Below are positions 1,638 to 24,000 of a stretch of 24,000 nt of DNA, one piece after another. The stretch is taken from NCBI GenBank assembly GCA_048550155.1, contig JBLYYW010000018.1, forward strand, positions 1-24,000. The letters run 5' to 3'. The position numbers and the translations under genes are program-made. Under the pieces are notes generated by a model, which saw nothing but the letters and a program-made list of their open reading frames with translations, searched no databases and was not told where the DNA came from. The stretch comes from Acidimicrobiales bacterium (GTDB taxonomy: Bacteria > Actinomycetota > Acidimicrobiia > Acidimicrobiales > SZUA-35). How positions within the stretch are numbered: position 1 is the stretch's first letter; the number at the start of each line of letters is the position of its first letter.

Positions 1638-4600
1638 AATGCCCGTCGCAGCAACGAAGCCTGCTCCTGCATGTGAATAGCACGGGAACCGGTTGCAGGA
1701 CTTCCCGATTCGGTTCGGCTGACCCGACGGATCTTGTGGGTGTCGCCGTGAGCCTCATACAAGCGACCCTTCACTGAGTTCCACGCACCCATGTTCTCGG
1801 GCTCTTCTTGGAGCCACACGATCTCGGTTGCGTTCGGATAACGGCTGAGCGCGGCAGCGATGTCGTCGAAGGGCCAGGGATACAACTGCTCAACACGAAC
1901 AACCGCTGCAGAGATGTCGTTGTCATCGCGATACTGCTCGGCTTCGGCCGCCACCTTGCCCGACGCGAACACCACTCGGCCGACTGCGGTGGCCCGCTCT
2001 ACCGGCGAAGGTTCGAGCACCTCTTCGAAGCTGCCGGAAGTGAACTGGTCGACGCTGTTTCTGGAGTACTTCGCCCGCAGTCCCGATTTGGGGGTGAACA
2101 CGACCAGTGGTTTGTTGATGTCACGAACGATCTGCCGCCGGAGCAAATGGAACAACTGAGCTGACGTGGTTGGGTTTGCAACCTGGATGTTGTCCTCGGC
2201 GCACAAGAGGAGGAACCGCTCGAGACGACCCGAGGAGTGTTCGGGCCCCTGGCCTTCATATCCGTGAGGGAGCAGCATCACCAATGGTGATGCCTCGTTC
2301 CACTTGTCCTCGGCCGCTACCAGGAACTGGTCGATGATGATCTGGGCGCCGTTCACGAAGTCTCCGAACTGTGCCTCCCACAGTGTGAGGCAATCGGGGT
2401 CCACCAACGAATACCCGTATTCGAAGCCGAGGCCGGCGTATTCGGACAACGTCGAGTCGTAGACCCAGAAATCGGTGTCGTCATCCCCAAGTTCAGCGAG
2501 CGGGGTGAACTCGCTGCCATCCTGATAGTGGCTCAACGTTGCGTGCCGATGAGCGAATGTTCCCCGGCGACTGTCCTGTCCAGCAAGGCGTACCGAGGTT
2601 CCTTCGACCAGCAGGGAGCCGTAGGCAAATGCTTCGCCCAGTGCCCAGTCGACCTCACCCGATGCCCACATCTTGTCGCGTGCCACGAACTGCCGCGCGA
2701 GTTTGGGGTGGACCTCGAACCCCTCGGGTACGAACGACAGTGCCTCGTACACCGTGTCCAAGGTTTCCCTGGGGACCGACGTGTCCACGTGGGGGAGCAC
2801 ACCCACTGGGGGCGGCGATGGCTTGGCCAGGATTCCCTCGGGCGGAGCTGACTCTCGAGTGTCGTCCAGTGCCAGCTGCAGCAGCTGTTGGAAATACTCG
2901 ATGGCCTTCTCGGCCTCTTCGATGGACAGCTCACCTCGGTCGATCAGAGCTTGAGTGAAGAGAGTACGAGCGCTGGGCCGTTCGCCGATCTTGCGGTACA
3001 TGACCGGCTGGGTGTAGCTGGGATCATCACCCTCGTTGTGACCGTGACGTCGATAACCGATCATGTCGATAACCACGTCTTTGTTGAAGCGTTGCCGGTA
3101 GGCGAATGCCAGCTGGGCGACGCGCACGCAGGCTTCAGGGTCATCGGCGTTTACGTGGATGATCGGTGCCTGCACCATCTTGGCAACGTCGGTGGAGTAT
3201 TCCGACGACCTGCTGTGGTGCGGGGCCGTGGTGTAGCCGAGTTGGTTGTTGATGATGAGGTGGATGGTTCCTCCGACCTTGTAGCCCTTCACCTGGCTCA
3301 GGTTCAGTGTCTCGGCGACGACTCCTTGGCCGGCGAACGCTGCGTCACCGTGGATGAGAATGGGCAGAATCGGATAGTTGCCCGCATCGCTCTGGTCCAT
3401 GTATGCCCGTGCCATGCCGATCACGACGGGATCGACCGCTTCGAGGTGTGAAGGATTTGCTGCGAGCTCAACTTCCACAGCGTTGCCGTTCCGGCTTGTG
3501 TGGCTACCGGTGAAGCCCAAGTGGTATTTCACGTCCCCCGACCCCTGGATCGCCTCCTGATCGACCGCACCTTCGAACTCTTTGAACAGATCGCGGTGGC
3601 CCTTCTTCATGATGTTGGTGAGCACGTTCAGTCGACCACGGTGAGCCATACCGATGATCCCGCGTTCGATACCCGCATCGGCCGCATCGCTCAAAATGGC
3701 ATCGAGGATCGGGACTGCACTTTCGGCACCTTCCAGGCCAAACCGTTTCTGACCGACGTAGCGGGCGGCCAAGAATTTCTCGAATGCTTCGGCGGTGCTG
3801 AGCCGTTCGAGGATGTGGTGGAGATCTTCGCGATCGAGCCGTGGCGCCGGCACCTCGACTTGTTCCTGAATCCATCGCTTCTCGGTGGGGTCTGCGATGT
3901 GCATGTATTCGACACCGACCGTGCGGCAATACGCGTCACGGAGCACTCCGAGGATGTCACCCAGCTTCATCTGCTTGGCGACGCCATCGATGGCTGCGTA
4001 GATGCCCTCGGTCGTTCCGGTCAGAAATCTTCGATCGAGGTCCCAGATCGTGAGGCCGAACGTGGCCGGGTCGAGTTCGGGGTGGGTTTCCTTGGGCCCA
4101 TCGGAAAGTGGGTTGGTGTTGGCGATGAGGTGGCCGCGGACCCGGTACTGGTTGATCAGAGTGTTCACGCCGTGCTGTTTGGCGATTGCCATGTCGACGT
4201 CGTTGTTGGATGACACCGCATCCTTGCGCCACTGCACAGCTTCGTAGGGAACTCGCATGTCGCCGAAGATCTCGGAGTAGAAGTTGTGCTCACCGAGCAG
4301 CAGCTCATGGACTCGCTTGAGGAACAGGCCAGACTCGGCACCTTGGATGATGCGATGGTCATAGGTGCTCGAGATGGTCATGATCTTGGAGATCCCGAGT
4401 TCGGCCAAGGTGACCGGATCCGCCGCTTGGTATTCGGTCGGGTAGCCGATGCCTCCGAGTCCCACGATGAGACCCTGTCCCGGCATGAGTCGAGGGACGC
4501 TCTGGATCGTGCCGATGGTCCCTGGATTCGTAATCGAGACGTTCGCCCCCATCAGATCATCGACCTTGAGGTTGTTGCTCCTGACCTTGGCGATCGCAGC

Positions 4601-5362
4601 CTCGTAGGTCTCGAGAAACTGTGAGAAGCTCATGTTCTGGGTGTCTTTGAGAACCGGAACGATCAGGCTCCGGGAGCCGTCCGACTTGGCTTGATCGACC
4701 GCGATGCCCACGTTGATCTGGCCGCTCTGGACAACTCTGGGTTTGCCGTCCGAACCGACCGCATAGCTGCTGGCCATCGCCGGGACTTCTTCTCGGATGG
4801 CCCTCACGATCGCGTACCCAATGATGTGGGTGAAGCTCACCTTGCCGCCGCGAACTCTTTTCAAGTGATTGTTGAGCACCTTGCGGTTGATCTCGAGGAG
4901 CTTGGCGGGAACCTCCCTGAAGCTGGTGGCTGTCGGGACCGAAAGGCTTGCCTCCATATTGGTGACGATCCGCGCTGCCGCACCACGTAGTGGGGTGCCC
5001 AGCTCAGGGGCGGCCTCCTTGACGCTGTCGAGCACCTTGGGTGCAGCTGGCGAGGATTCCGGTGCCTCGGCTGGGGGAGCCGCAGCCGGCGCCGCCGGGG
5101 CGGGCGGAACGGTGGCACTGCTACTCGCTCCGTTGGACTTGGACCCGTTCGGAAAATCTGTCGGCGGTGCCGGCGAGTCGGCGTTGAGAGCAGCCGCAGG
5201 CGAGTCCGGACTGGGCGTTGCAGCCGGTGACCCTTCAGCATCGGAGAAAAGGTGTCGCCAGTCCTCGGGAACCGACTTCGGGTTGTCTTTGTAGTTCTGC
5301 GCTAGCTCCTCGACCAGCCACGCATTCGGGCCAAGGGATCTCGGTTCTTCGTTGGAAGCCAC
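1631..5362 (-). CDS. kgd: Multifunctional 2-oxoglutarate decarboxylase/dehydrogenase E1 fused to an E2-like succinyltransferase domain (actinobacterial Kgd/OdhA type)
   Basis: 1243-aa ORF with a GTG start. It has an N-terminal Ala/Pro-rich linker, an E2 catalytic-domain motif (SSTYDHRIIQGAESGLFL) and the long TPP-dependent E1o core (GMAHRGRLNVL, IHGDAAFAGQGVV, LLPHGYEGQGPEHSS). The 3' end overlaps the convergent HAD gene by 7 nt. Confidence 0.95.
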   Translation of the reverse strand: MASNEEPRSLGPNAWLVEELAQNYKDNPKSVPEDWRHLFSDAEGSPAATPSPDSPAAALNADSPAPPTDFPNGSKSNGASSSATVPPAPAAPAAAPPAEAPESSPAAPKVLDSVKEAAPELGTPLRGAAARIVTNMEASLSVPTATSFREVPAKLLEINRKVLNNHLKRVRGGKVSFTHIIGYAIVRAIREEVPAMASSYAVGSDGKPRVVQSGQINVGIAVDQAKSDGSRSLIVPVLKDTQNMSFSQFLETYEAAIAKVRSNNLKVDDLMGANVSITNPGTIGTIQSVPRLMPGQGLIVGLGGIGYPTEYQAADPVTLAELGISKIMTISSTYDHRIIQGAESGLFLKRVHELLLGEHNFYSEIFGDMRVPYEAVQWRKDAVSSNNDVDMAIAKQHGVNTLINQYRVRGHLIANTNPLSDGPKETHPELDPATFGLTIWDLDRRFLTGTTEGIYAAIDGVAKQMKLGDILGVLRDAYCRTVGVEYMHIADPTEKRWIQEQVEVPAPRLDREDLHHILERLSTAEAFEKFLAARYVGQKRFGLEGAESAVPILDAILSDAADAGIERGIIGMAHRGRLNVLTNIMKKGHRDLFKEFEGAVDQEAIQGSGDVKYHLGFTGSHTSRNGNAVEVELAANPSHLEAVDPVVIGMARAYMDQSDAGNYPILPILIHGDAAFAGQGVVAETLNLSQVKGYKVGGTIHLIINNQLGYTTAPHHSRSSEYSTDVAKMVQAPIIHVNADDPEACVRVAQLAFAYRQRFNKDVVIDMIGYRRHGHNEGDDPSYTQPVMYRKIGERPSARTLFTQALIDRGELSIEEAEKAIEYFQQLLQLALDDTRESAPPEGILAKPSPPPVGVLPHVDTSVPRETLDTVYEALSFVPEGFEVHPKLARQFVARDKMWASGEVDWALGEAFAYGSLLVEGTSVRLAGQDSRRGTFAHRHATLSHYQDGSEFTPLAELGDDDTDFWVYDSTLSEYAGLGFEYGYSLVDPDCLTLWEAQFGDFVNGAQIIIDQFLVAAEDKWNEASPLVMLLPHGYEGQGPEHSSGRLERFLLLCAEDNIQVANPTTSAQLFHLLRRQIVRDINKPLVVFTPKSGLRAKYSRNSVDQFTSGSFEEVLEPSPVERATAVGRVVFASGKVAAEAEQYRDDNDISAAVVRVEQLYPWPFDDIAAALSRYPNATEIVWLQEEPENMGAWNSVKGRLYEAHGDTHKIRRVSRTESGSPATGSRAIHMQEQASLLRRAFQ

Positions 5363-5403
5363 GCCCTCAGGCTACTCCTGTGGGTACTAGTGTTTGGAGT
5401 CCT

Positions 5404-6186
5404 GTGATCATTGCGACCTGGAACGTGAATTCGCTCAAGGCGAGGATGCCGCGTGTGGAAGAGTGGCTCGCCGACGTGCAACCCGACGTGCTGTGTCTCC
5501 AAGAGACCAAGATGAAGGACACCGCGTTTCCGGCTCTCACCTTCCAAGGGCTGGGATACAACTCGGTCCATCATGGATTCAATCAGTGGAACGGCGTTGC
5601 CATTCTGTCTCGACTTGACATCGAAGACCCGATCAACGGATTTGCGCCCGGCATCGAACCCGACCCCGATGCCCGGTTGATTTCCGCCACCTGTGGTGGT
5701 GTCCGGGTCCACAGTGTCTATGTGCCAAACGGCAGAGAAATTGGACACGACCACTTCCACTACAAACTCTCCTGGCTCGATCGGCTCGTCGAGCATCTGA
5801 ACGCCACGGTGTCACAGGATGACGATGTGGTCGTTGCCGGTGACTGGAATATCGCTCCATCCGATGACGATGTATGGGCTCCGCGACTGTTCGCGAACTC
5901 CACCCACGTGACACCCGAGGAACGGTCGGCGCTCGGGAGAGTGAAGGCTTGGGGTTTGGTCGACACGTTCAGGAATCGACACCCGGAGGCACAACTCTTC
6001 AGCTACTTCGACTATCAGGCCGGCCGCTTTCACAAGCGGGAGGGCATGCGGATCGACTTCTTGCTTGCGTCTAACTCGCTCGCAGAAACAGGATTTCTCG
6101 ACATCATCGATCGGAATGCCCGAAAGGGAACCAAGCCAAGCGATCATGCGCCCGTGCTCGCTGGATACCGGGTGAGGGCTGCGTGA
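5404..6186 (+). CDS. xthA: Exodeoxyribonuclease III (AP endonuclease, Xth family)
   Basis: ORF 5218..6186. The conserved core starts at the GTG at 5404 (V-IIATWNVNSLKARMP), with GGAG 4 nt upstream. Motifs seen are LCLQETK, GDWNIAP and KPSDHAPV. The start lies only 41 nt from the divergent kgd start. Confidence 0.9.
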   Translation: MIIATWNVNSLKARMPRVEEWLADVQPDVLCLQETKMKDTAFPALTFQGLGYNSVHHGFNQWNGVAILSRLDIEDPINGFAPGIEPDPDARLISATCGGVRVHSVYVPNGREIGHDHFHYKLSWLDRLVEHLNATVSQDDDVVVAGDWNIAPSDDDVWAPRLFANSTHVTPEERSALGRVKAWGLVDTFRNRHPEAQLFSYFDYQAGRFHKREGMRIDFLLASNSLAETGFLDIIDRNARKGTKPSDHAPVLAGYRVRAA

Positions 6187-8429: not shown

Positions 8430-9299
8430 CTAGCGCGACGGAACCCGGCCACGCAGCAGCTCGGCAGCGACGCGGTGTCCGGTGTGACACGCCGCCACCG
8501 GATCGCGTTGCCAACCACCGAGTGCGCCCTCGCTGAAGTCATGGGTGAGGAACCCTGCCGCGAACGCATCGCCGGCGCCAGTGGTGTCGACCACCGAGTC
8601 GAGAGCGATCGCGGGTACCTCCTCGACACGGGCTCCCGGCCGATACACCACTGCTGACCGAGGGCCACGCTTCACGATGGTCAGCGCATTCGCGACGGCG
8701 GAGGAAATGCCAAGCGAATTGGCCTCGTCTTCGTTTGCCAAGACAGCGGTCGGGGCGAGCTGGCTGAGGAGCTGTCGGACCCTCGATGAACCCATCTTCT
8801 CGATCAACGCTGCCGAGGAGACATCGATCGACACGGCGATGTTGCGTGTGTGGGACCAGTCGATCAGTTGCAGCGCTGTGTCGCGTAGAGGCCCCGTGAC
8901 CAGTGAGTAGAACGGAACGTGAAGGACAGTAACGGTGTCGAGCCACCAGGGAGCGGGATCCGCGAGTTCGAGGCACGCCCTACGGTCGGTCAGCATCGAT
9001 CGTTCGCCGGACTCATCGACAATCACCAGAACCGTCCCGGTCGAACCGCCCCGCCGAACCGCCGTCATGTCCACGTTGAGGGAGATCAGCTGCCCGAGCA
9101 GAGCGTCACCGGTAGCATCCGCACCCACCTGGCCCAGGAAGCGCGCTGGTGCGCCTCGTTCTGCCGCCGCGACCGCTACGTTCGCGGCGCTTCCACCTGG
9201 CCGCCGATGAATTCTCGCTTCGGTATCAGATGCCCATTGAAGTGGGCCGTCGAGTCGTGCCACGATGTCGTCGACGAGGTCACCGAGAGTTGCCAGCAT
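8430..9299 (-). CDS. PfkB-family carbohydrate/ribokinase-like kinase
   Basis: 289 aa with GGSAANVAVAAA near the N-terminus and the PfkB signature VVDTTGAGDAFAAGFL near the C-terminus. Confidence 0.85.
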   Translation of the reverse strand: MLATLGDLVDDIVARLDGPLQWASDTEARIHRRPGGSAANVAVAAAERGAPARFLGQVGADATGDALLGQLISLNVDMTAVRRGGSTGTVLVIVDESGERSMLTDRRACLELADPAPWWLDTVTVLHVPFYSLVTGPLRDTALQLIDWSHTRNIAVSIDVSSAALIEKMGSSRVRQLLSQLAPTAVLANEDEANSLGISSAVANALTIVKRGPRSAVVYRPGARVEEVPAIALDSVVDTTGAGDAFAAGFLTHDFSEGALGGWQRDPVAACHTGHRVAAELLRGRVPSR

Positions 9300-13235: not shown

Positions 13236-13353
13236 CTCCGGTGGGAACGACACAATGGTGAGGGTAATCGCTTTCGGCCCCAAGCTGCGTGCCGCTGACA
13301 GCGCTGCACCTGAACCGAAATGCGAGACCATCGGTGCGGTCCCGTCGTCCGCA

Positions 13354-13359
13354 TACGAT
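13354..13359 (+). promoter_or_regulatory. Candidate -10 box (TACGAT) 7 nt upstream of the malic-enzyme ATG, suggesting a leaderless transcript
   Basis: TACGAT at 13354-13359, then 7 nt, then the ATG at 13367. The geometry matches that at the HAD gene (998-1011). Confidence 0.3.
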
Positions 13360-13366
13360 CGAGGCC

Positions 13367-14773
13367 ATGACCAGCACGCCCCCGGCAACCCAATACTCCA
13401 TCTCTGTTCGAGTCACCCTGGAGAACAAGCCGGGGGTGCTCGGCGAGCTCGCAACTGCGATCGGTTCGGCCGGGGGCAGTATTTACGCCATCGATGGATT
13501 CGTGGCCAAGGGGCCTGAGCTGGAACGAGAGATCGTGGTCAACTGCTCCAGCGTTGAGCATCAGTCGGAGATCATCGCAGCGATCGATGCTGTGGAGCGG
13601 GTGGCATTGCACAGCTGGCACGATCGCACCTTCCGCATGCATGAAGGTGGCAAGATCGAGGTTCTTCCTCTCTGTCCGGTCGGTGATCGTGACGATCTGT
13701 CGATGGCCTACACGCCCGGTGTCGCCCGGGTCTGCAATGCCATCGCTGAGGATCAGTCCCGGGCCGACGAACTGACGATAAGGAAGAACACCGTCGCCAT
13801 CGTGAGCGACGGAACTGCAGTGCTCGGGCTCGGGAACATCGGCCCGAAGGCAGCCTTGCCCGTTATGGAGGGCAAGGCGCTGCTGTTCAAGGAGTTCGCC
13901 AACGTCGACGGTTTCCCGATCGTGCTCGACGTTGACTCACCGGAGGATCTCATCGAGACTGTCGTTCGCATCGCCCCAACATTTGGCGGCATCAACCTCG
14001 AAGATATTGCGGCACCGGCTGCGTTCTTGGTCGAGTCCGAACTGAAACGCCGGCTCGACATACCGGTGTTCCACGATGATCAGCACGGTACAGCGGTGGT
14101 CGCTCTCGCCGCGTTGGAGAACGCTGTGAAGGTGGTGGGCAAGACACTCCAGGATCTCACGGTCGTGATCAACGGCATCGGTGCTGCCGGCCTGGCGATC
14201 GGCAAAATCCTGTTGAATGCGGGTGTTGCCCACGTGGTTGGGACCGATCGCAGCGGTGCGATCTATGACGGCCGTGATGGGCTGAACGAGGCCAAGCAGT
14301 GGTTTGCGGAGAACACCAACCCGGAGAAGCGAGCCGGTTCGTTGGCCGAAATCATCTCGGGTGCTGATGTCTTCATCGGTGTGAGCGCCCCCGGTGTCCT
14401 GGCAGTCGAGGATGTGAAGTCCATGGCCGCCGACCCGATCATCTTTGCCATGGCGAATCCGGATCCTGAAATCCTCCCCGAGCAGGTTGAGGGACTCGTG
14501 GCGGTCATGGCTACGGGCAGGTCGGATTACCCCAATCAGATCAACAACGTGCTGGCGTTCCCCGGCATCTTTCGAGGAGCCTTCGACGCTCGAGCCAGCG
14601 ACATCACCGAAGGGATGAAGTTGGCGGCGGCTCAGGCGATCGCTGCCAGTGTGGATCCGACCGAATTGTCGGCGACCTGCGTGGTCCCGTCGGTATTCGA
14701 CAAGTCGGTGCCGTTGAGGGTGGCTGAAGCTGTCGCACAGGCAGCGCGCGACGAAGGGGTCGCCCGAGCGTGA
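13367..14773 (+). CDS. NAD(P)-dependent malic enzyme (oxaloacetate-decarboxylating malate dehydrogenase) with an N-terminal ACT domain
   Basis: ORF 13289..14773. The preferred start is the ATG at 13367. The N-terminus looks like an ACT domain (ISVRVTLENKPGVLGELATAIGSAGGSIYAIDGF). The malic-enzyme core shows LSMAYTPGVA, VSDGTAVLGLGNIGP, NLEDIAAP, FHDDQHGTAVV, INGIGAAGLAIGKIL and FAMANPDPEI. Confidence 0.9.
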   Translation: MTSTPPATQYSISVRVTLENKPGVLGELATAIGSAGGSIYAIDGFVAKGPELEREIVVNCSSVEHQSEIIAAIDAVERVALHSWHDRTFRMHEGGKIEVLPLCPVGDRDDLSMAYTPGVARVCNAIAEDQSRADELTIRKNTVAIVSDGTAVLGLGNIGPKAALPVMEGKALLFKEFANVDGFPIVLDVDSPEDLIETVVRIAPTFGGINLEDIAAPAAFLVESELKRRLDIPVFHDDQHGTAVVALAALENAVKVVGKTLQDLTVVINGIGAAGLAIGKILLNAGVAHVVGTDRSGAIYDGRDGLNEAKQWFAENTNPEKRAGSLAEIISGADVFIGVSAPGVLAVEDVKSMAADPIIFAMANPDPEILPEQVEGLVAVMATGRSDYPNQINNVLAFPGIFRGAFDARASDITEGMKLAAAQAIAASVDPTELSATCVVPSVFDKSVPLRVAEAVAQAARDEGVARA

Positions 14774-15500: not shown

Positions 15501-16766
15501 TCATCCATCGGATTGGTTGTCGTCGGCATCTTCGGTCGTTTCGGTGTCTGCGCCGTCGGAGGACTCCTCGGGTTCGTCATCCACTGCGATATCAGCTTCT
15601 CCGTCTTTGGACTCTTCAACCGTTGCGGACTGTGAGTCGGCCTCCAACGTGGTTACTTCGAGCTCGAATCCTACGTCGAGTTCCTCGGAGAGGTCCTCGG
15701 CCAGGTGGGTGACATCGATCGGCTCGTCAGTGGTCGAGGCGGTGATGTCGATCGTCCGCTCCCCGTCTTCGGTGTCGACCTCGATCGCGATGACGGCTGC
15801 ATCGGGGTTGGTTTGCTCCATGACGTCCTTGACGGCGTCTCTGGTTTCATCGTCGTTGATCGGGCGACGTTCTCGCCACTGATCGGTCAACTCGAGAGGG
15901 GCAACGATGAGGAGGACTGCGGCCACCGCCAATCGCAGGCCGCGAGCGACGTGGAAGCGCCCGCTTATCAGCTGCTTCCTCGGTGCGAGGCCGCAGAGCA
16001 TGAACGTTCCTGCTGCGGAGAGCACGATGCCGGCGACGTTCGCCAGGTAGAGCAGAAACGCTCCAGCTGCCAACGTCCATTCTCCCATCTGCAGAGTGAT
16101 CCCGACCACAGCGAGCGGTGGCACAAGTGCCACGGCCACCGCAACTCCGGTGAGCGCCTCGCCGGCGGCTCTTCGAACCTGGGCGTAGGCTCCAGCGGCA
16201 CCGGCCGCTACCGCAACTCCCAGATCGAGAAGGTTTGGGGCCGTTCGGGCAAGCACTTCGCCGGGAATCTCCTCCGGAGTCGGCAAGACCAGTGAGGCCG
16301 CTACAGCGAGGGCGATGGCCATCAGGCTTCCCAGGCCAGCTGTGAGGGCCGACTCGGCCGCCCTACGGGGCCAATCCATCACAATCGCAGCAGCGACTCC
16401 AAGAACTGGTGCCATCAATGGGGCGACGATCATCGCCCCGATCACCACGGCGGTGGAATCGGCCAAAAGGCCGAGAACGGCGATGAGCGAGGACAGGATC
16501 ATCAATGCGCCGAATCTGTGCACGAACGGGGTTCGCCGACCACCCTCGTGGAACAGGTTGGCGACAACCCGGGCGCGCTCTTCCCGGGCCATCCGGTTGT
16601 TGTGAAGGTACCGGCGGGCAAGGCGCCCTATGGCCCGCTCGGTGAGTGAGGGTCCCAGCCGTCGTCGGGAGGGGTTGGACGGGGGAGGTGTTACGTGACT
16701 GGTGGTTGGGCGTGTTGTCGGGGAGTGGTGGTGGGTGGTGGGCCGGTCAGCCTTGGGGGTTGACAT
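15501..16766 (-). CDS. DUF389-family integral membrane protein with a Pro/Thr/His-rich N-terminus and a highly acidic C-terminal tail
   Basis: ORF 15501..16916. The preferred start is the ATG at 16766, with GGAG 8 nt upstream (16775-16778). The hydrophobic core ADSTAVVIGAMIVAPLMAPVLGVAAAIV is typical of DUF389. The C-terminus is EESKDGEADIAVDDEPEESSDGADTETTEDADDNQSDG. The stop lies 2 nt from the convergent upstream gene stop. Confidence 0.8.
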   Translation of the reverse strand: MSTPKADRPTTHHHSPTTRPTTSHVTPPPSNPSRRRLGPSLTERAIGRLARRYLHNNRMAREERARVVANLFHEGGRRTPFVHRFGALMILSSLIAVLGLLADSTAVVIGAMIVAPLMAPVLGVAAAIVMDWPRRAAESALTAGLGSLMAIALAVAASLVLPTPEEIPGEVLARTAPNLLDLGVAVAAGAAGAYAQVRRAAGEALTGVAVAVALVPPLAVVGITLQMGEWTLAAGAFLLYLANVAGIVLSAAGTFMLCGLAPRKQLISGRFHVARGLRLAVAAVLLIVAPLELTDQWRERRPINDDETRDAVKDVMEQTNPDAAVIAIEVDTEDGERTIDITASTTDEPIDVTHLAEDLSEELDVGFELEVTTLEADSQSATVEESKDGEADIAVDDEPEESSDGADTETTEDADDNQSDG

Positions 16767-17015
16767 TCGGATTTCTCCATTTGTGTTGTGGACCGGGGCG
16801 GCGAGCGTCCCGAATCCGTCACTTGGGTGATGGGCCGTAACGTGTTCGCAACATAGCTGGTGATCGGCGGACCCGTACAGTGGTCGACCCCAGACCGGCG
16901 CTGGGGAACCGATCATCCCCCGGACGTGGTTGACAGATGGCTAACTTCGCGCGATAGAACCCAAGCGCAAGTAGTGTCCAAACGGCAAAGTGCGTTTGCG
17001 ACTATGAGAAAACCC

Positions 17016-17897
17016 TTATAAACGCTGGAGAATCGCGTTGTGGGTCGCAAGAACTCGTCGTGCGTTGTCCACGTGGAGGTTCTCGATCATCCGCCCGTCA
17101 ACCGTCGCAACGCCGCTTCCAGCCGCTTCTGCGGCCGAAAACGCAGAAATCACTTTTTTCGCGTTTTCGACCTCTTTTTGGCTAGGAGACCATGTGTCAT
17201 TGCATGTTTCGATCTGGTTTGGGTGAATCAGCGTCTTGCCGTCGAAGCCGAGTTCGAAACCCTGAGCACACTCTGCAGCGAAGCCCTGCGGGTCTTTGAT
17301 GTTGTTGTACACGCCGTCCAGAACAGCGATCTGAGCCGCTCGCGCCGCCAGGATTGTGGCGGCCAAATGAGGAACCAGGTTGGCTCGACCCGCAGTGAGC
17401 GGCGCCCGCAATTCCTTGGCGAGGTCATTGGTTCCCATCACGAATGCGGAGCATCGCGGATGCCGTGCGATGTCCAATGCGTTGAGCACTCCGAGAGGAG
17501 ATTCGATCATGGCCCAGACGCTGACGCTGTCAGAAGCTCCTGCGGCTGACAGCGCCTCGGCCACGGCATCGAGTTCGTCGGCGGTGTCGACCTTGGGAAT
17601 CACGACAGCTGCTGGGGTCGCCTGTGCCGCCGCCGCGATGTCCTCAGCGCCCCACGGAGTGGTGAGGCCGTTGCAGCGGATTGTGAGCAATCGATTCCCG
17701 TACTCACCGCTCGCCACGGCCGCGGCCGCTTTGGCTCGAGCATCAACTTTGGCGTCGGGAGCGACGGCGTCCTCGAGGTCGAAGATGATGGCGTCCGCCG
17801 GCAGTGTCTTCGCCTTTTCGAGTGCTCGATCATTCGCTGATGGCATATAGAGGACACTGCGGAGGACCTCGATATCGGAGGTGTCGTCAGAAGCCAT
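17016..17897 (-). CDS. HpcH/HpaI aldolase / citrate lyase beta-subunit (CitE)-like protein; candidate malyl-CoA thioesterase or acyl-CoA lyase
   Basis: 293 aa. [61 protein letters not shown] and [11 protein letters not shown] are typical CitE-like motifs. The start overlaps the mcl stop by 11 nt. Confidence 0.85.
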
Positions 17898-18951
17898 AGC
17901 TTGCTGCCAGTTCTGGGTCTCGGGCTGCGAGGCTCTTGGCGAGTTCGACCACGACGTGGCACTGCTTCACGCTGGCGTCATCCTCCATCTTGCCGTCCAA
18001 CATGATGGCCCCGGTCCCGTCTCCCATGGCGTCGATCACCCGTTGCGCCTGGGCGACGTCCTCGGGTCGGGGACTGAAGACTTTCTTGGCAACGGCGATC
18101 TGTTTGGGGTGCAGACTCCACGCTCCGACACAACCGAGAAGGTAGGCGTTTCGGAACTGGGCCTCGCAGGCGACGGTGTCGGCGATGTCTCCGAAGGGCC
18201 CATAGAACGGGAGAATCCCGTGGGTCACGCAGGCATCGACCATGCGGGCGATCGTGTAGTGCCAGAGGTCTTGCTGATAGCGATCTCGTGGGGCGTTGAT
18301 ATCGGGCGCACCGTCCTCGCCGGGCGGTGGGTCACCCTGCACCACGTAGTCGGGGTGGCCGCCCCCGACCCGGGTGGTTTTCATTCGACGGTTGGCAGCC
18401 AGATCGGCTGGCCCGAGCGAGATCCCTTGCATCCTGGGTGACGCACCACAGATCGCTTCCACGTTGGAAACCCCGCGGGCTGTTTCGAGGATTGCGTGGA
18501 ACAGTATCGGGTGGGACAGGTTCGCCCTGGCCTCCAGCTGGGCTACCAGCCGATCGGCGTAGTGGATGTCCTCGGGGCCTTCCACCTTCGGGATCATGAT
18601 CACGTCGAGGGAGTCGCCGATCTCGGTCACCAGTGTGGTGAGATCGTCGAGGGCCCACGGTGAGTCAAGACTGTTGATTCTCGTCCACAGTTGTGTGTCA
18701 CCCATGTCGACCGAGCGGCCGACGGCCACCATTCCGGCTCGGGCCGCGTCCTTTTCGGCCATCGGTACGCCGTCTTCCAAGTTACCCAAGAGAATGTCCA
18801 CTGTTGGCGCCATATCAGGCACCTTGGCGACCATCTTGGCGTTGGATGGCGGGAAGAAGTGGATCATGCGGCTGGGTTTGACCGGGATCTCACGCAGCGG
18901 ATCCGGTGCACCAACCGCAAGCGGGCGGAAGAAGTCTTTTGGAGGTCGCAC
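17887..18951 (-). CDS. mcl: L-malyl-CoA/beta-methylmalyl-CoA lyase (Chloroflexus Mcl-type, ~350 aa, HpcH/HpaI family)
   Basis: 354 aa with a GTG start. It appears near-colinear with my recollection of Chloroflexus aurantiacus Mcl: [122 protein letters not shown] and [13 protein letters not shown]. Confidence 0.85.
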
Positions 18952-19093
18952 GCTGCCGAGCGTACGCCTCCAATCATGGTCGAATGAAAACGGCGACCGG
19001 GGCCTTGGTCAGATCCGCCGTGATGGCTACGAGGCGTGCTTTCAGAGCCGGGACGCTGCGTTCGCAGCCGTGCCGATTGGGCCTCGCAGGGCC

Positions 19094-19372
19094 CTATCTC
19101 GGGTCCGTTTCGTCGACGTGGTCGACAATGCCGACGATGACAGACCGGATCGGACCCGTGTCGATCCCGAAGATCTGGCGAGCGGACGTTCCTTCATCAC
19201 AAATCAGCACGTTGTCGCCGACCCCTGCGTCCACCACATTCACCGCAATCAAGTAGCGTCCTGTCGGCTCGCCGACCGGGTTGACCTCGTCGCACAACAG
19301 GAGGCGTTGCCCGTCGAAGAAGGGGTGGCTGATTGGCGAGACCACCGTTCCTGCGACCCGTCCGAGCTTCAT
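19094..19372 (-). CDS. BMC-P vertex (pentamer) shell protein, EutN/CcmL/PduN family (paralog 3)
   Basis: 92 aa: MKLGRVAGTVVSPISHPFFDGQRLLLCDEV...IAVNVVDAGVGDNVLICDEGTSARQ...VIVGIVDHVD. This is the canonical EutN/CcmL pattern. It has an ATGA overlap with the upstream BMC-P gene. Confidence 0.9.
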   Translation of the reverse strand: MKLGRVAGTVVSPISHPFFDGQRLLLCDEVNPVGEPTGRYLIAVNVVDAGVGDNVLICDEGTSARQIFGIDTGPIRSVIVGIVDHVDETDPR

Positions 19373-19650
19373 TGTGGACCCCCGGCCAAGGTCACCTCAT
19401 CGACCAGACCCACGATGGCGTGGTCGACGGGCACGAACCTCTCCTCCAGCGCCTCGGCGGCCTCTCGCGAAGCGACGAAGTAGACGAGTTCGCCCGGCCC
19501 GGCCATGGCTACCGCATCGGCGGCGACAATGGGCGAACCGTGGTCCTGTTGATGTTTGTCCAGCGGCTGGACGATCAGAAACCTCACGCCGTCCAGACCC
19601 TCGGACTTGATCGTGGCCACCACCGTGCCCGTTACCCGACCCAGTTGCAT
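19369..19650 (-). CDS. BMC-P vertex shell protein, EutN/CcmL/PduN family (paralog 2)
   Basis: 93 aa: [31 protein letters not shown]...VAADAVAMAGPGELVYFVASREAA...AIVGLVDEV. GGGAG lies 5 nt upstream of the ATG. It has an ATGA overlap with the upstream BMC-T gene. Confidence 0.9.
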   Translation of the reverse strand: MQLGRVTGTVVATIKSEGLDGVRFLIVQPLDKHQQDHGSPIVAADAVAMAGPGELVYFVASREAAEALEERFVPVDHAIVGLVDEVTLAGGPQ

Positions 19651-20282
19651 CAGGTCTCCCGGAGGTCGTGGAGTTGGTGGTTGAATCGCAACCCCAGATC
19701 CATCGTTTTCACCATGTCCTGATGAAGTTGGGGGATCACGGCCGTCGCCACCAACTTGCCGCCTCGCTCGATTTCTTGGGCGGCTCGATCGACCGAGGCC
19801 TCGGTATCGGCCACCGTGCCGGCGAACAAGCAGTATGCCTTGCCTCCCAGGTCGTCGCCGAGTCGAAGGGCCGCCAGGGACACTTCGGCCGCCTTGACGC
19901 CGGCGTCGGCAGCCACGATGGCCGAGGCAACCGAGGCTGTTTCCACAATGCCAACCGCGTCGGGAGTGATCGGCTTGTCCGGTTCGGTTCCGGTGATTGC
20001 AGCTACGACCGCAGGATGGACGTTGGCCAATAGCAAGCTGTCCACCACGGTGTTGGTTCCTCCGGCCTCGAGCGCGATCTCTACTGCAGCGGTGTCGCCA
20101 CCGACCAGAACCACATACCGGCCGGGGTGTACCGTGCCCGCATACAGCGCGGCCACCGGCGACGCCTTGGCCATGGCGTCGGCTCCGACGATGCCTGCCA
20201 CGATCGAGTCGAACTCGAGTAGGCCGATTGCGGGGTCGAATTGGGCGAAACCGGTTTCAGACAAGGCGTAGCGCTCCAACAA
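19650..20282 (-). CDS. BMC-T shell protein with tandem BMC domains, PduT-like
   Basis: 210 aa with a TTG start (no ATG or GTG alternative before the first BMC domain). Two BMC domains are present: AIGLLEFDSIVAGIVGADAMAKAS... and AVGIVETASVASAIVAADAGVKAAEV.... By recollection it is colinear with Salmonella PduT (LVLANIHPSVLPAISG versus LLLANVHPAVVAAITG). It overlaps the AldDH 3' end by 26 nt. Confidence 0.88.
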   Translation of the reverse strand: MLERYALSETGFAQFDPAIGLLEFDSIVAGIVGADAMAKASPVAALYAGTVHPGRYVVLVGGDTAAVEIALEAGGTNTVVDSLLLANVHPAVVAAITGTEPDKPITPDAVGIVETASVASAIVAADAGVKAAEVSLAALRLGDDLGGKAYCLFAGTVADTEASVDRAAQEIERGGKLVATAVIPQLHQDMVKTMDLGLRFNHQLHDLRET

Positions 20283-21714
20283 CAGTCACCCTGCGAATTC
20301 GGGAAAACGTACGAGGCCGGGTGAGGCCTTCGCCGGTTGGACTGGCTATCGAGAACGACGAGTACCCCTCGCCGGCCTGACCGAGACCTGCGAAGTTGGG
20401 CCCGTTCGCCACCAAGATCGAACAGTTCATGGCACGAGCCATCGTGGTGATCGTGTCGACGTTGGTCGAGTGGATCGAGGCGGTATGGCGGAACCCGTGT
20501 TCGGACCGGACTGCCAGGTCGATGGCCTGGTCGACGTTCTTGACCCGTACGACCGGCATCACCGGCATCATCTGTTCGGTCCACACCAGCGAGTGATCGG
20601 ACCGGACCTCGGCCAGGAGTAGCCGCACATCGCCTTCGACGCTCACGCCGATCTCCCCGAGGAGTTCACCGGCGTTCTTGCCAATCCACACAGGATTGAT
20701 GGCCCCCGGCTTGTTGGCCGCTCCCATCTTGTTGAAGATTACCCGCTCCAAACGCCGCAGCTCGTGTTCCTTGAGCCGGTAGGCGCCGGCCTTCACCATG
20801 GCCCGCACCAGCGCGTCAGCCACGGTGTCGACGACGATCGTGGTCTTCTCGTCCGCGCACACGATGTTGTTGTCGAACGATGCGCCTCGCACGATGTCGG
20901 TGGCCGCCTTGGCGATGTCGGCGGTTTGGTCGACCACCGCCGGCGGGTTGCCGGGCCCGGCCGTGATCGCCTTCTTCGGGCTGCGCAACGCCTCGCCGAC
21001 GACGGCCGGGCCACCGGTGACCAGCAGAACCCGCACGTCGGGGTGGGCCATCAATGCCTGAGCCGATTCCAGAGTTGGATGGGCCACCGCGGTGATGAGG
21101 TTGGGTGGTCCGCCGGCTCCGACGATGGCCCGGTTCAGGAGCTTGATGTTCTCCATCGACACCTGGCGGGCGCCAGGATGCACGTTGAACGCAACCGCAT
21201 TGCCGGCAGAGATGATCGCGATGCTGTTGTTGATGATGGTCGATGTGGGGTTTGTGGTCGGGGTTATCGAGCCGATGACGCCGTAGGGGGCGTACTCGCT
21301 CAGCATCATGCCCTCGTCACCGGTGACGACATGGGGCTCCAAGTCTTCGGGACCCGGGGTTTTGGTGGTGACCAAGTGGTTCTTCACCACCTTGTCCTCC
21401 GGGCGGCCCAACCCGGTTTCGGCATGAGCCATGTAGGCCAGCCGTTCACCTTCGCGGAGCATGGAGGCTCGCATCGCCTCAACGATGACCCGACGAACGT
21501 CCAGTCCCATCTTGCCGTAGGTTGCGGACGCCTGGAAAGCGGCTCTGACGGCGGCATCGACCGTTTCGAAGATGCCGTCACCGAGGAGTTCGTCCGGTGT
21601 GCCCAGCGCATCGGCGGCTCGAAGGGCGGATCCTTCGCTGAGGCCACCCTGGGCCCCGGCTACCCGGCCCCGGACGCGTTCGATGATCGACTGGACCTCG
21701 TGGTCGCTCAGCAC
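20257..21714 (-). CDS. CoA-acylating aldehyde dehydrogenase (PduP/EutE-like) with an N-terminal encapsulation-peptide-like helix
   Basis: 485 aa with a GTG start 7 nt after the BMC-P stop. The catalytic-Cys context SFDNNIVCADEKT matches the PduP/EutE F-D-N-N-x-x-C-x-A-E-K pattern. The N-terminal SDHEVQSIIERVRGRV is an amphipathic helix, followed by a Gly/Ala-rich linker before the core (GIFETVDAAVRAA). Confidence 0.9.
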   Translation of the reverse strand: MLSDHEVQSIIERVRGRVAGAQGGLSEGSALRAADALGTPDELLGDGIFETVDAAVRAAFQASATYGKMGLDVRRVIVEAMRASMLREGERLAYMAHAETGLGRPEDKVVKNHLVTTKTPGPEDLEPHVVTGDEGMMLSEYAPYGVIGSITPTTNPTSTIINNSIAIISAGNAVAFNVHPGARQVSMENIKLLNRAIVGAGGPPNLITAVAHPTLESAQALMAHPDVRVLLVTGGPAVVGEALRSPKKAITAGPGNPPAVVDQTADIAKAATDIVRGASFDNNIVCADEKTTIVVDTVADALVRAMVKAGAYRLKEHELRRLERVIFNKMGAANKPGAINPVWIGKNAGELLGEIGVSVEGDVRLLLAEVRSDHSLVWTEQMMPVMPVVRVKNVDQAIDLAVRSEHGFRHTASIHSTNVDTITTMARAMNCSILVANGPNFAGLGQAGEGYSSFSIASPTGEGLTRPRTFSRIRRVTVVGALRLV

Positions 21715-21721
21715 CGCGTAC

Positions 21722-22009
21722 TCACTTCCGGTACACCGTTTCGCCGTCGACCTCCCAGGTGTCGACGATGGCCATGACCACCGCGTCGCAAGGCTTGTTC
21801 TGCGTGACGCCGGTCTGGCGAGCCGAACTGCCCGAGGCGTACATCACCACTTCGCCGACGCCGGCGCCCACTGCGTCGACGGCCACGACATAACCACCGC
21901 TGTCGCTGTTGTCGACTCCGATCTGACGCACCAGCAGGAAGGTCAAACCCTCGATGAGCGGCTCCTTTTGACTGGCCACAACGGTGCCGGTCACACGTCC
22001 GAGGAGCAC
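21722..22009 (-). CDS. BMC-P vertex shell protein, EutN/CcmL/PduN family (paralog 1)
   Basis: The ORF track gives 21722..22147. The family-typical N-terminus V(M)[15 protein letters not shown] begins at the GTG at 22009, 4 nt after the BMC-H stop. The rest reads ...FLLVRQIG...[25 protein letters not shown]...[13 protein letters not shown]. Confidence 0.85.
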
Positions 22010-22013
22010 TGGC

Positions 22014-22316
22014 TCAGCCCGACTCTGCAGCGGCCTCGTCGGCTCGACCGAGGGGAAGAACCGTGTCGATGTTGACATGGGGGCGGGCGATGACGTGGGT
22101 TGCGATAACTTCACCGACCTTTTCCGCGCCGCGAACGCCTGAATCAACCGCAGCCTTCACTGCGGCCACGTCGCCACGAACAACGGCAGTGACGTAGCCG
22201 CCACCGGTCGATTCGTAGGACACCAAGTCGACCTTGGCTGCCTTGACCATCGCATCGGCGGCTTCCACCATCGCTGCGAAACTCCTGCACTCAATCATGC
22301 CTAGCGCTTCAGCCAT
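22014..22316 (-). CDS. BMC-H hexameric shell protein (PduA/EutM/CcmK-like single BMC domain)
   Basis: The ORF track gives 22014..22571. The real start is the ATG at 22316, with GGGAG 6 nt upstream. The sequence [80 protein letters not shown] is a textbook Pfam BMC domain. The start overlaps the upstream BMC-T stop (ATGGCTGA). Confidence 0.92.
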
Positions 22317-23010
22317 TACTGGCTCCCTTCTTGTTTCGGGTTGTTGTTGTCTTCTGTGCTGTTGGCTTCGGGGCTGGCGCCTTGTGAGGCTCGCGGCCAT
22401 CCATGCCCTCGAGCGCCGCGACCGCGGCCCGCCAGCCAGCATCGATATCCCGCTCCTCGCCACCGAGGTACACCCGTCCCATGGCCCCAGCCGCCCGGAC
22501 CTCCAGCACATTGATGTCGGCCGCCTTCTCGGCCTCGTTGGCGGCGAGCGCGGCATACGCTGCTGGCTCACATTCCAACACGTACAACGTCTGGCCGGGC
22601 ACGATCATCTGGCCGTGGCGCATGCGATTGATGAGCTGTGCGTGATGGTCGTCGATGCGTCGGATGATCTGGCTGGACATGATCCTGGGCTTGAGCCGGT
22701 CTGACTCTGCCATCCCCAACGAATCCAGAATTGCCGCTCCCGCCGCCCGGGTCTCGGCTTGGTCGGGGGAGTGCACCTCCAACAAGCCGTAGTAGCGCTC
22801 GATGATCTGCATCCCCGGTTTCACACGGGTCGCTTTCAGGGCAACGTCGGTGAGCCGATTGATCTCGATTCCGGGCGCCACCTCGACGTACAGAGAGGCA
22901 TCACCCGCCAGGGGGAGGAACCCTTGAGCGACGGTTCCCAAGAATGCGGCGTATTGCGGTTGGAGGCTGTCCAAAAAGGCGAAGGACCGGATCTCAATAG
23001 CTGTTTCCAC
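22309..23010 (-). CDS. BMC-T shell protein with tandem permuted BMC domains, CcmP/CsoS1D-like (BMC-T double-stacking type), with a Lys/Thr/Pro-rich C-terminal tail
   Basis: The ORF track starts at the TTG at 23034. The preferred start is the GTG at 23010, preceded by AAGGAG-N6. [57 protein letters not shown]...[29 protein letters not shown]...[24 protein letters not shown]...[18 protein letters not shown] closely follows my recollection of cyanobacterial CcmP. The tail is [24 protein letters not shown]. Confidence 0.85.
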
Positions 23011-23842
23011 TGCTGTCTCCTTCGTTTGGGCCAACGATTTGTACTCCGGCCGAAGCTCCGATTCTGGTCGCCCCAGCCGCGATCATGTCCTCGACATCCG
23101 ATTTGGTCCGCACTCCGCCTGACGCCTTGACACCCATGTCGGGCCCAACGGTTTCGCGCATGAGGGCCACGTCGTACACGGTGGCGCCACCGCCACTGAA
23201 TCCGGTTGACGTTTTCACGAAGTCGGCCTTCGCCTTCTTTGCCAGAGACGAGGCAACCACCTTCTCTTCGTCTGTCAACAACGAGGTTTCGAGGATGACT
23301 TTGACGATCGCCCCCGCTTCGTGCGCAGAATCGACCACCTTTGCGATATCGACCAGCACGGTCTGGTGATCTCCCGATTTGAGCGCTCCGACGTTGATGA
23401 CCATGTCGACCTCTCTGGCGCCGTCACGAATGGCTCGCCGAGCCTCCATGGCCTTTATCTCCGCTGTCGCTGCGCCCAGAGGGAAGCCGATGACCGAACA
23501 CACCTTCACTTCGCTGCCCCGCAGGTGTGTCGCTGCCCGTTTGACCCATGTCGGATTCACACACACCGAGGCGAACTGGAACTTCTCGGCTTCTTGGCAG
23601 AGCCGGTCGATGTCGTCAGCGGTTGTCTCGGGCTTCAAGGCGGTGTGGTCTATGTACTTGGCCAGGTCGAGTGGGACCTCCGACGCGTCACCGTGGAACG
23701 CCACCCGGTCTGCCCCGTTCACGATCACCTGGCGGACGCCTTCGGGCGTCTCGCAGCGATCTGCCTGACTGGCCAGCGTGCTCATGACCTCTTTGGTAAT
23801 GAGTTCGATGAGTAGCTCCCGGTCCAAGGGTTGATCGGTCAC
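22994..23842 (-). CDS. deoC: Deoxyribose-phosphate aldolase (DERA, DeoC/LacD class I aldolase family) with an N-terminal extension of about 58 aa carrying an encapsulation-peptide-like helix
   Basis: The ORF maximum is 22994..23863 (GTG). The preferred start is the GTG at 23842, preceded by GAGGAG-N6. The DeoC core shows [25 protein letters not shown] and [13 protein letters not shown]. The Schiff-base Lys context is DFVKTSTGF, followed by [10 protein letters not shown]. The N-terminal [21 protein letters not shown] is an amphipathic helix. Confidence 0.9.
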
Positions 23843-23852
23843 GCTTGACTCC

Positions 23853-24000
23853 TCACGCTTCACTCCTGATGTAGGTCGATTCGATCTCGTTGATGAGCGT
23901 CACCCGCTTGTGATGACGTCCTCGGCCCCACGGAGTGGCAAGCCACTCTTGCACGATCTGCCATGCCAACCCGGCACCGGTGAGACCGGCACCTAGCGTC
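23853..24000 (-). CDS. rpiB: Partial CDS (C-terminal 48 codons only): RpiB/LacAB-family sugar-phosphate isomerase
   Basis: Absent from the ORF track because it is open at the window edge. Manual translation gives ...[48 protein letters not shown]. From memory this parallels the E. coli RpiB C-terminus GLELAKMIVDAWLGAQYEGGRHQQRVEAITAIE. The stop overlaps the deoC 5' region. Confidence 0.7.

Follow-up and report, generated by a model that had tools for sequence, protein, structure and literature searches.

What kind of bacterial microcompartment (BMC), if any, is encoded at the end of a 24,000-nucleotide stretch of DNA from an Acidimicrobiales bacterium (GCA_048550155.1, contig JBLYYW010000018.1, positions 1-24,000, forward strand; hereafter, the window), and what might it do? 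The original prediction had read a run of minus-strand genes between 19094 and 24000 as a metabolosome operon of the sugar-phosphate utilisation (SPU) class. Our analysis bears this identity out: the run encodes a deoxyribose-phosphate aldolase (DERA), a CoA-acylating aldehyde dehydrogenase (AldDH), an RpiB-like protein and shell proteins of all three classes, and this content fits one catalogued subtype, SPU3. Judged from its sequence, the locus is an SPU3-type metabolosome operon, a further example of a catalogued type, and we put at roughly 80% the probability that it would serve to degrade deoxyribose 5-phosphate, which arises from the breakdown of DNA, and to trap the toxic acetaldehyde.

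Nine tightly packed genes are indeed present at 19094-24000 on the minus strand, in the order rpiB-like (3′ end only), DERA, BMC-T(dp), BMC-H, BMC-P, AldDH, BMC-T(s), BMC-P, BMC-P. All those that are complete in the window are intact (list of open reading frames, ORFs, plus Pfam), so that the disruption which the original prediction had named as evidence against itself is not seen. Pfam, PDB and NCBIfam comparisons confirm the families: EutN_CcmL, BMC, Aldedh, DeoC and LacAB_rpiB are all matched, with the CcmP-like BMC-T(dp) protein (a 241-aa ORF at 22309-23034) lying just under the BMC cut-off at 23 bits. Three genes carry PF00936 and three carry PF03319, and all six lie interleaved with those for DERA and AldDH inside a 5-kb stretch; the proposed shell inventory of one BMC-H, two BMC-T and three BMC-P proteins is correct. 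Gene starts were refined using ribosome-binding sites and the gene calls of a 98%-identical relative, L081 (GCA_024638925.1, JAHEJK010000003.1; the identity is that of DERA in a protein search), giving new starts for DERA (23842), BMC-T(dp) (23010), BMC-H (22316) and the first BMC-P gene (22009). With these starts, neighbouring genes overlap by up to 17 nt or are separated by up to 10 nt, the widest gap being that between the rpiB stop and the DERA start, slightly more than the limit of 7 nt first given (Table 1).

Table 1. Coordinates of the nine operon genes and of the gap that follows them, in order of transcription.
Feature	Position (strand)	Length	Match or remark
rpiB-like gene, 3′ end; operon gene 1	23853..24000 (-)	last 48 codons + stop	Pfam LacAB_rpiB 4e-5
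DERA	22994..23842 (-)	282 aa	Pfam DeoC 2e-19 (ORF 22994-23863)
BMC-T(dp), CcmP-like double-stacking tandem-BMC shell protein	22309..23010 (-)	233 aa	PDB and NCBIfam
BMC-H hexamer shell protein	22014..22316 (-)	100 aa	Pfam BMC, one copy, 2e-28 (ORF 22014-22571)
BMC-P pentamer protein 1, separate member of the triplet	21722..22009 (-)	95 aa	Pfam EutN_CcmL 1e-24
CoA-acylating AldDH	20257..21714 (-)	485 aa	Pfam Aldedh 6e-34
BMC-T(s), PduT-fold tandem-BMC shell protein	19650..20282 (-)	204-210 aa	Pfam BMC, two copies, 3e-31
BMC-P pentamer protein 2, first of the adjacent pair	19369..19650 (-)	93 aa	Pfam EutN_CcmL 6e-25
BMC-P pentamer protein 3, second of the pair, last operon gene	19094..19372 (-)	92 aa	Pfam EutN_CcmL 1e-20
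Intergenic region after the last shell gene, probable operon end	18868..19093 (-)	226 nt	GC-rich hairpins ~18939-18973

The same nine-gene order recurs in at least 16 other loci, twelve from Acidimicrobiia plus others from Eisenbacteria, Planctomycetota and Gemmatimonadota, and the arrangement is therefore a real conserved operon rather than a product of chance. Where does it begin? In L081, whose downstream side shares synteny with the window (the two HpcH-family genes and those for DUF389, malic enzyme and bPH), rpiB is the first gene, placing the 5′ end of the operon beyond position 24000, as had been proposed, by about 450 nt. Upstream of rpiB in that genome lie genes for an FHA-domain protein, a PIG-L deacetylase, a nitroreductase, a methyltransferase and an MFS transporter, and the 10 kb on that side contain no phosphotransacylase (PTAC), alcohol dehydrogenase (ADH), PduS, other BMC-linked enzyme or recognisable DNA-binding regulator. 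The operon would thus extend only ~450 nt further and comprise exactly nine genes. The earlier statement that neither a PduL/Pta-type PTAC nor an ADH nor a regulator accompanies it holds for the vicinity of the operon in the window as well as for this upstream stretch; PTAC, ADH and PduS are absent from all 24 kb and from the 10 kb on either side of the L081 DERA gene.

We also considered whether the system might extend beyond these nine genes and rejected the idea, because 14 related loci show only lineage-specific neighbours by ORF clustering and Pfam: a block of MurJ and ABC-2 transporter genes, a glyoxalase, a LacI regulator (one locus), a hydrolase or, in L081, the FHA-domain protein. No transporter, kinase, PTAC, ADH or PduS gene is conserved around the operon in these 14 loci. 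Except in L081, the flanks are unconserved among relatives while the nine genes are kept together, which argues that the nine genes are the functional unit.

How well does this unit fit a known type? The SPU class was named in 2014 and by 2021 comprised more than 280 loci from 26 phyla in seven subtypes. DERA (pfam01791) has been proposed as the universal signature enzyme unique to the class, and a pfam02502 gene adjoins it in SPU loci, being absent only in SPU5 and less common in SPU4; the resulting rpiB-DERA gene pair or fusion is a hallmark of the class. Compared with SPU3 as catalogued by Sutter et al. 2021 (Nat Commun 12:3809, Supplementary Data 2) and re-curated by Dwyer et al. 2024, the locus shares an enzyme set made up of AldDH, a pfam01791 DERA and a pfam02502 RPI only, with rpiB preceding DERA; N-terminal encapsulation peptides on AldDH and DERA; one BMC-H, its edge motifs being standard; a BMC-P triplet of two neighbouring genes and one at a distance; a T(dp) that resembles CcmP; a T(s) that lacks the pore Cys and a PduS partner; the absence of a PTAC; and a host group, Actinobacteria, that is among the known ones. 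We found no structural differences. RPI and DERA are separate genes here and fused in some SPU3 loci. The names 'Ilumatobacter' and 'Acidimicrob' do not occur in the part of the published supplementary data covered here, and the lineage may lie outside the 2021 set.

The other subtypes fit less well. SPU6, found in Chloroflexi, is the only bacterial SPU type whose enzymes have been purified (Dwyer, Sutter & Kerfeld 2024). It shares a DERA with an N-terminal extension and the Asp/Lys/Lys residues, an RPI with an N-terminal encapsulation peptide and without the catalytic Cys, a BMC-P triplet, a single BMC-H, a BMC-T(dp) and the lack of PduS. However, its AldDH carries the encapsulation peptide at the C-terminus rather than the N-terminus and belongs to a different major branch (EUT3-like), its T(dp) is of the 'blue' clade and not CcmP-like, and it has a EutQ-like small protein. 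In the published placement, the SPU3 AldDH branch lies near those of the Haliangium ochraceum (HO) type, SPU5 and MIC7. SPU2, found in Bacteroidetes, Spirochaetes and candidate phyla, agrees in its minimal enzyme set, in having a CcmP-like T(dp) and in the N-terminal peptide of its AldDH, but possesses a fourth BMC-P (an extra green-clade copy) where we find three; moreover, some 80% of SPU2 T(s) proteins retain the pore Cys and roughly one locus in four has PduS, whereas neither is found here. SPU1, SPU4 and SPU7 lack T(dp) and have a PTAC, and SPU5 lacks RPI.

Kinship also extends beyond the class. The T(dp) protein is homologous to BMC-T2/T3 of the HO shell (5v76, E = 4e-74; 5v74, E = 7e-71) and the T(s) protein, more distantly, to 5dih ('Microcompartments protein', E = 3e-16). 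The HO shell likewise has a BMC-P triplet, but the main HO locus lacks DERA and RPI. With the housekeeping DeoC and RpiB of E. coli the encoded enzymes share the DERA catalytic core and the RpiB fold and phosphate-binding residues; the housekeeping proteins, however, have no N-terminal extensions, are unlinked to shell genes and, in the case of RpiB, have a catalytic Cys (or a Glu in the M. tuberculosis type) where there is an Asp here.

Turning to the shell, the description of the T(dp) protein as CcmP-like is borne out by its PDB and NCBIfam scores. Its best match is CcmP (4ht5, E = 4e-86; 5lsr likewise, ~1e-86), with CsoS1D far behind (3f56, E = 3e-55), and it reaches 338.8 bits against a cut-off of 340 for the NCBIfam beta-carboxysome CcmP model. 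The conserved Glu-Arg pore-gate motif (IIERYYG) is present, and the precomputed Pfam family of the L081 orthologue is CsoS1D_N. BMC-P1 also finds its NCBIfam match in a carboxysome family (CcmL-like, 7e-26, below the model cut-off); its EutN_CcmL domain spans aa 49-129 of the ORF at 21722-22147, and its refined length of 95 aa agrees with the gene call in L081. BMC-P2 and BMC-P3 are adjacent and overlap by 4 nt. BMC-H, which is 98-100% identical to its counterparts in L001 and L081, carries the edge motifs KAAK and ARPH, where the comparison with the standard pair (KAAK/PRPH) relies on the published description.

Given these matches to CcmP and CcmL, might the compartment be related to carboxysomes, or be of some other non-SPU kind? 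We give this idea next to no credence. No RuBisCO, carbonic anhydrase, CcmM/N or CsoS2 is found in the window or in the 20-kb regions of relatives, the NCBIfam CcmP and CcmL scores all lie below their cut-offs, a CcmP-like T(dp) is what one expects of SPU2 and SPU3, and an AldDH with an encapsulation peptide, together with a DERA, defines a metabolosome. The carboxysome reading was rejected on this gene content.

The second tandem protein, T(s), had been called PduT-like, a description that stands for the fold and fails for the metal site. It aligns to PduT (PDB 3n79, E = 9e-36; 'gtvhpgry' against 'ktispgkf'), but the position of Cys38, which in PduT binds a 4Fe-4S cluster at the trimer pore and usually goes with a PduS partner, is occupied by His52 of the 210-aa ORF (TVHPG), no PduS accompanies it, and the score against the PduT equivalog TIGR02526 is 104.7 bits where the cut-off is 250.3. 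On these comparisons the protein is of the PduT fold and not a PduT equivalent. Of 14 related loci, those from Acidimicrobiia have His at the pore position, and those from Eisenbacteria, Planctomycetota and Gemmatimonadota have Gln. Three His residues at the pore of the trimer could bind a metal.

Both candidate cargo enzymes are well supported as members of their families. DERA scores 287 bits against the NCBIfam deoC equivalog (cut-off 117) and gives a close alignment, free of large gaps, with a deoxyribose-phosphate aldolase of known structure (PDB 8qps, E = 1e-79), and D146, K210 and K239, which align to D102, K167 and K201 of E. coli, are invariant in 27 homologues. The alignment to 8qps begins only at residue 65 of the 289-aa ORF. 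The refined start is preceded by a GAGGAG ribosome-binding site, with an alternative GTG start at 23863, and the resulting N-terminal extension of ~57 aa, with its putative encapsulation helix, is conserved among 27 close homologues and can still be recognised from phylum to phylum. SPU DERAs are described as having such an extension, a helix of about 25-30 residues and then strands, which DERAs from outside BMCs lack. An AlphaFold2 model of DERA, built on a shallow alignment, has a mean pLDDT (predicted local distance difference test) of 69.6 and a helix predicted with low confidence at residues 8-26. AldDH scores 613.6 bits against NCBIfam PRK15398 (cut-off 403) and is closest, among solved proteins, to the aldehyde dehydrogenase 5jfl (E = 5e-128), with which it shares the catalytic Cys286 (FDNNIVCADEK aligned to FDNNLPCVAEK). 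Some 36-46 aa precede the region aligned to solved AldDHs and hold a conserved segment, SDHEVQSIIERVRGRV, a helix that is maintained across loci. The alignment to 5jfl reaches within two residues of the C-terminus, so that there is no C-terminal extension.

The original prediction had endowed DERA and AldDH with amphipathic N-terminal extensions. The extensions are there; the numerical test described below does not show them to be amphipathic. Helix-like N-terminal motifs are conserved across Acidimicrobiia and, in the case of most of them, across other phyla, and we regard the extensions as putative encapsulation peptides because the segments are additional to solved non-BMC homologues of DERA, AldDH and RpiB, because they are conserved, and because the same extensions have been published for SPU loci. 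As a separate observation, many loci from Pyrinomonadaceae, Blastocatellia and other Acidobacteriota (L015, L017-L033 and many others) encode a DERA that is homologous from query residue 14 onwards, extension included. Within 10 kb of these Acidobacteriota genes we detected neither shell genes nor an AldDH or T(dp) gene, and their products may be cargo of a split or satellite BMC locus.

How would these parts work together? Under the SPU3 reading, deoxyribose 5-phosphate would be made in the cytosol from deoxynucleosides or deoxyribose, by enzymes encoded outside the window, and would enter a shell built from the single BMC-H, T(s) as a structural tile, the gated CcmP-like T(dp) and three BMC-P proteins that presumably cap the vertices. 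DERA, AldDH and the RpiB-like protein would be brought to the lumen by their conserved N-terminal helices. There DERA, whose catalytic residues are present and whose SPU6 orthologue is active in vitro, would split deoxyribose 5-phosphate into glyceraldehyde 3-phosphate and acetaldehyde, and AldDH, as its catalytic Cys suggests, would convert the acetaldehyde to acetyl-CoA with reduction of NAD+. Since there is no PTAC, ADH or PduS, CoA/acetyl-CoA and NAD+/NADH would have to pass to and from the cytosol, for which the large, gated pore of T(dp) is the most plausible way. We favour this route because of a published correlation: SPU types without a PTAC typically have a T(dp), a possible exit for acetyl-CoA (Dwyer 2024, Commun Biol 7:1562, PMC11585597). 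The RpiB-like protein, finally, would be mainly a DERA-bound packaging partner, or would work on another sugar phosphate.

That last step departs from the original prediction, which had begun the pathway with sugar-phosphate isomerisation. What the window holds of the gene matches LacAB_rpiB profile positions 103-138, shares 96% identity with the corresponding stretch of L001 and includes the phosphate-binding motif GRGRHHKRV. The full gene can be read in L081 (9405-10004, 199 aa, PF02502 4e-50), where the protein has a 49-aa N-terminal extension containing FENEVRSLVARVLAGVI. A functional RpiB has its catalytic base at Cys66 (E. coli type) or Glu75 (M. tuberculosis type), positions that fall outside the window and were read in relatives. 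Cys66 is replaced by Asp and Thr68 by Ala in 14 of 14 related loci from four phyla, the motif DGAGIGS, invariant in these 14, standing where the catalytic CGTGxG would be; at the Glu75 position, L081 and 13 further related loci have Ser or Cys. The rpiB genes with DGAGIGS are those of L081, L001-L012, L016, L043, L064 and L071. The RpiB sequences of E. coli and M. tuberculosis served as references for the catalytic residues, and the alignment to PDB 3he8 shows the Cys-to-Asp change independently of them. The sugar-phosphate-binding residues (DH, REHN, GRxxHxxR), on the other hand, are retained. An isomerisation step is thus doubtful, all the more so as the SPU6 RPI, which also lacks the conserved active-site Cys, showed little or no ribose 5-phosphate isomerase activity (Dwyer 2024, PMC11585597). 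From these substitutions, and by analogy with SPU6, we consider it more likely that the RpiB-like protein is a DERA-binding packaging partner, or acts on a sugar phosphate other than ribose 5-phosphate, than that it is a ribose 5-phosphate isomerase.

Imagine instead that the shell is of SPU type but handles a different sugar phosphate, with the RpiB-like protein isomerising a (deoxy)sugar phosphate that feeds the DERA reaction or results from it, and with the Asp serving as an alternative base, as does the residue found there in LacA; the compartment would then be more than a plain device for the catabolism of deoxyribose 5-phosphate. Invariance of DGAGIGS across four phyla, together with intact sugar-phosphate-binding residues, is a stronger constraint than a mere scaffold would seem to require; the rpiB-DERA pairing is a hallmark of the class, and rare sugar phosphates were left open as substrates (Dwyer 2024, PMC11585597). 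But DERA, with its full complement of catalytic residues, lies well above the deoC equivalog cut-off and aligns closely to 8qps; the SPU6 RPI had little or no isomerase activity on ribose 5-phosphate, and the ~1:1 complex that it forms with DERA left the kinetics of DERA unchanged (same study); and SPU5 works without any RPI at all. On balance we consider a different substrate unlikely. A fuller version, to which we likewise give little weight, would have the Asp-for-Cys protein act as an isomerase of new specificity (for example, between a deoxy-pentulose phosphate and the DERA substrate), the lineage-specific T(s) His triad as a functional gate, and acetyl-CoA pass to an adjacent pair of malyl-CoA-lyase-like proteins. 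If it were true, the SPU3 compartment of abundant aquatic Acidimicrobiia would handle something other than, or upstream of, deoxyribose 5-phosphate, and the His triad would be a metal- or ligand-binding gate rather than part of a passive tile.

The degradation of deoxyribose 5-phosphate nonetheless remains our preferred reading, and several points weigh against it. The SPU3 call was made from gene content and the published description, not from a shell-clade ('colour') assignment. The DERA N-terminal helix (residues 8-26) reaches only ~58 pLDDT in the AlphaFold model, and the hydrophobic moments of the three N-terminal segments were not above those of shuffles. A strictly conserved RpiB-like protein does not fit a linear pathway, and gene content leaves cofactor recycling unexplained. 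Genes for uptake or phosphorylation of deoxynucleosides or deoxyribose are not linked to the operon in the window, in related loci or in L081; a pfkB kinase gene at 8430-9299 has no assigned role and lies ~10 kb away. We know of no experimental data on any SPU3 locus or on this organism and, to our knowledge, no in-vivo substrate has been established for any SPU type. The original statement that the class has no established substrate is accordingly still correct as regards SPU3 and life inside the cell; it no longer holds in vitro, where purified SPU6 DERA is active on deoxyribose 5-phosphate. Equally outdated is the claim that SPU compartments are known only from genome mining, given that SPU6 enzymes have been purified (PMC11585597) and that an archaeal SPU-type shell is reported to self-assemble, with recruitment of enzymes depending on encapsulation peptides (2025 preprint, PMC12747264).

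Is the operon in use, or might it be a recently acquired, silent or dispensable cassette without a current role in its host? A scan with DERA of species-representative genomes places the closest relatives among metagenome-assembled genomes (MAGs) of Acidimicrobiales/Ilumatobacteraceae (91-72% identity), so that the actinobacterial origin proposed earlier is upheld and the host, on this evidence, is an Ilumatobacteraceae-like actinobacterium of the Acidimicrobiia. Exact-sequence look-ups of two operon products, the 289-aa DERA and the 93-aa BMC-P, gave no contig. Amino-acid identity between the operon genes and those of L081 is 90-100% and in each gene is higher than the identity at synonymous sites, a sign of purifying selection. 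At the same time, four-fold-site identity to L081 is 0.67-0.91 in eight operon genes, 0.58 in the first downstream gene and 0.36 in the next two, with chance at ~0.30, and nucleotide identity between window positions 15501-23842 and L081 10001-18378 is 91.6% in the operon versus 79.3% in the flank. That the operon has diverged far less than its surroundings suggests, as the simplest explanation, that the cassette recently recombined or was transferred whole between related lineages. This pattern, the variable flanks and the lack of a conserved linked regulator or transporter are what one would expect of an island. If the operon were idle, however, we would not expect intact ORFs, conserved lengths and catalytic residues and a signature of purifying selection; nor does an island sit well with at least 120 clusters of close DERA homologues (at least 82% identity) in environmental sequence data, with an operon GC content that matches the surroundings, or with the absence of a tRNA nearby and of an integrase among the ORFs scanned against Pfam/NCBIfam. 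We regard a cassette with no current role as very improbable.

Two of the related loci deserve a brief remark of their own. In an Eisenbacteria MAG (L013, 12291-13609) AldDH is recovered in three separate tblastn pieces, suggesting frameshifts and hence a pseudogene or an assembly error. Locus L008 (CAXMOP010000075.1) is labelled Kiloniellales (Alphaproteobacteria), yet its operon is 73-86% identical to the Acidimicrobiia version in most genes and its flanking genes are shared with Acidimicrobiia loci; it looks like a mis-binned contig or a recent transfer.

SPU is among the most widespread metabolosome types and its physiology has so far remained outside in-vivo study; SPU3 is its minimal version, without cofactor-recycling enzymes. 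What we describe is a compact, self-contained nine-gene operon that is common in Ilumatobacteraceae/Acidimicrobiia and appears to move or recombine as a unit. It offers a convenient minimal cassette for heterologous reconstitution of shell and cargo, and a convenient system in which to ask how a metabolosome without PTAC recycles CoA and NAD+ and what role a Cys-less RpiB-like protein plays. Its importance is modest, in that the type, the predicted chemistry and the encapsulation signals are already published: the locus is a further example rather than a discovery and establishes no new category.

Transcription probably ends in the structured gap after the last shell gene. The minus strand of 18860-19100 has a minimum free energy of -101.8 kcal/mol (z = -2.87 versus shuffles), and the GC-rich hairpin at ~18939-18973, which has no U tract, may be a factor-independent terminator of the type that lacks one. 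A scan for promoter and terminator consensus sequences gave nothing above chance, Rfam nothing at gathering thresholds, and a tRNA scan no hits.

Behind this 226-nt gap, directly downstream and on the same strand, lie two genes of the HpcH/HpaI lyase family (17016-18867, minus strand). The first, of 326 aa, is a close match to two HpcH/HpaI-aldolase structures (PDB 6kin, E = 1.6e-133; 4l7z, E = 1e-130), which we take to be the Roseiflexus and Chloroflexus malyl-CoA/beta-methylmalyl-CoA/citramalyl-CoA lyases, and is also matched by the named malyl-CoA lyases 4l9y and 5ugr; the second, of 293 aa, is CitE/malyl-CoA-lyase-like. The pair could condense acetyl-CoA with glyoxylate to malate and free CoA, and a malic enzyme gene is found at 13289-14773. 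We rejected the pair as a general part of the operon: only in the window and in L081, and in none of L001-L012, does it adjoin the shell genes, and it stands behind the gap and carries no N-terminal extension. Likewise rejected, as a link to DNA scavenging, was an exonuclease-family gene at 5218-6186, which matches the exodeoxyribonuclease III (xth) equivalog, a DNA-repair enzyme by family function. Further away, the minus strand of 1631-5362 encodes a 1243-aa protein that fuses 2-oxoglutarate dehydrogenase E1 with an E2-acyltransferase domain. This OdhA/Kgd architecture is typical of Actinobacteria and so fits the actinobacterial assignment of the host.

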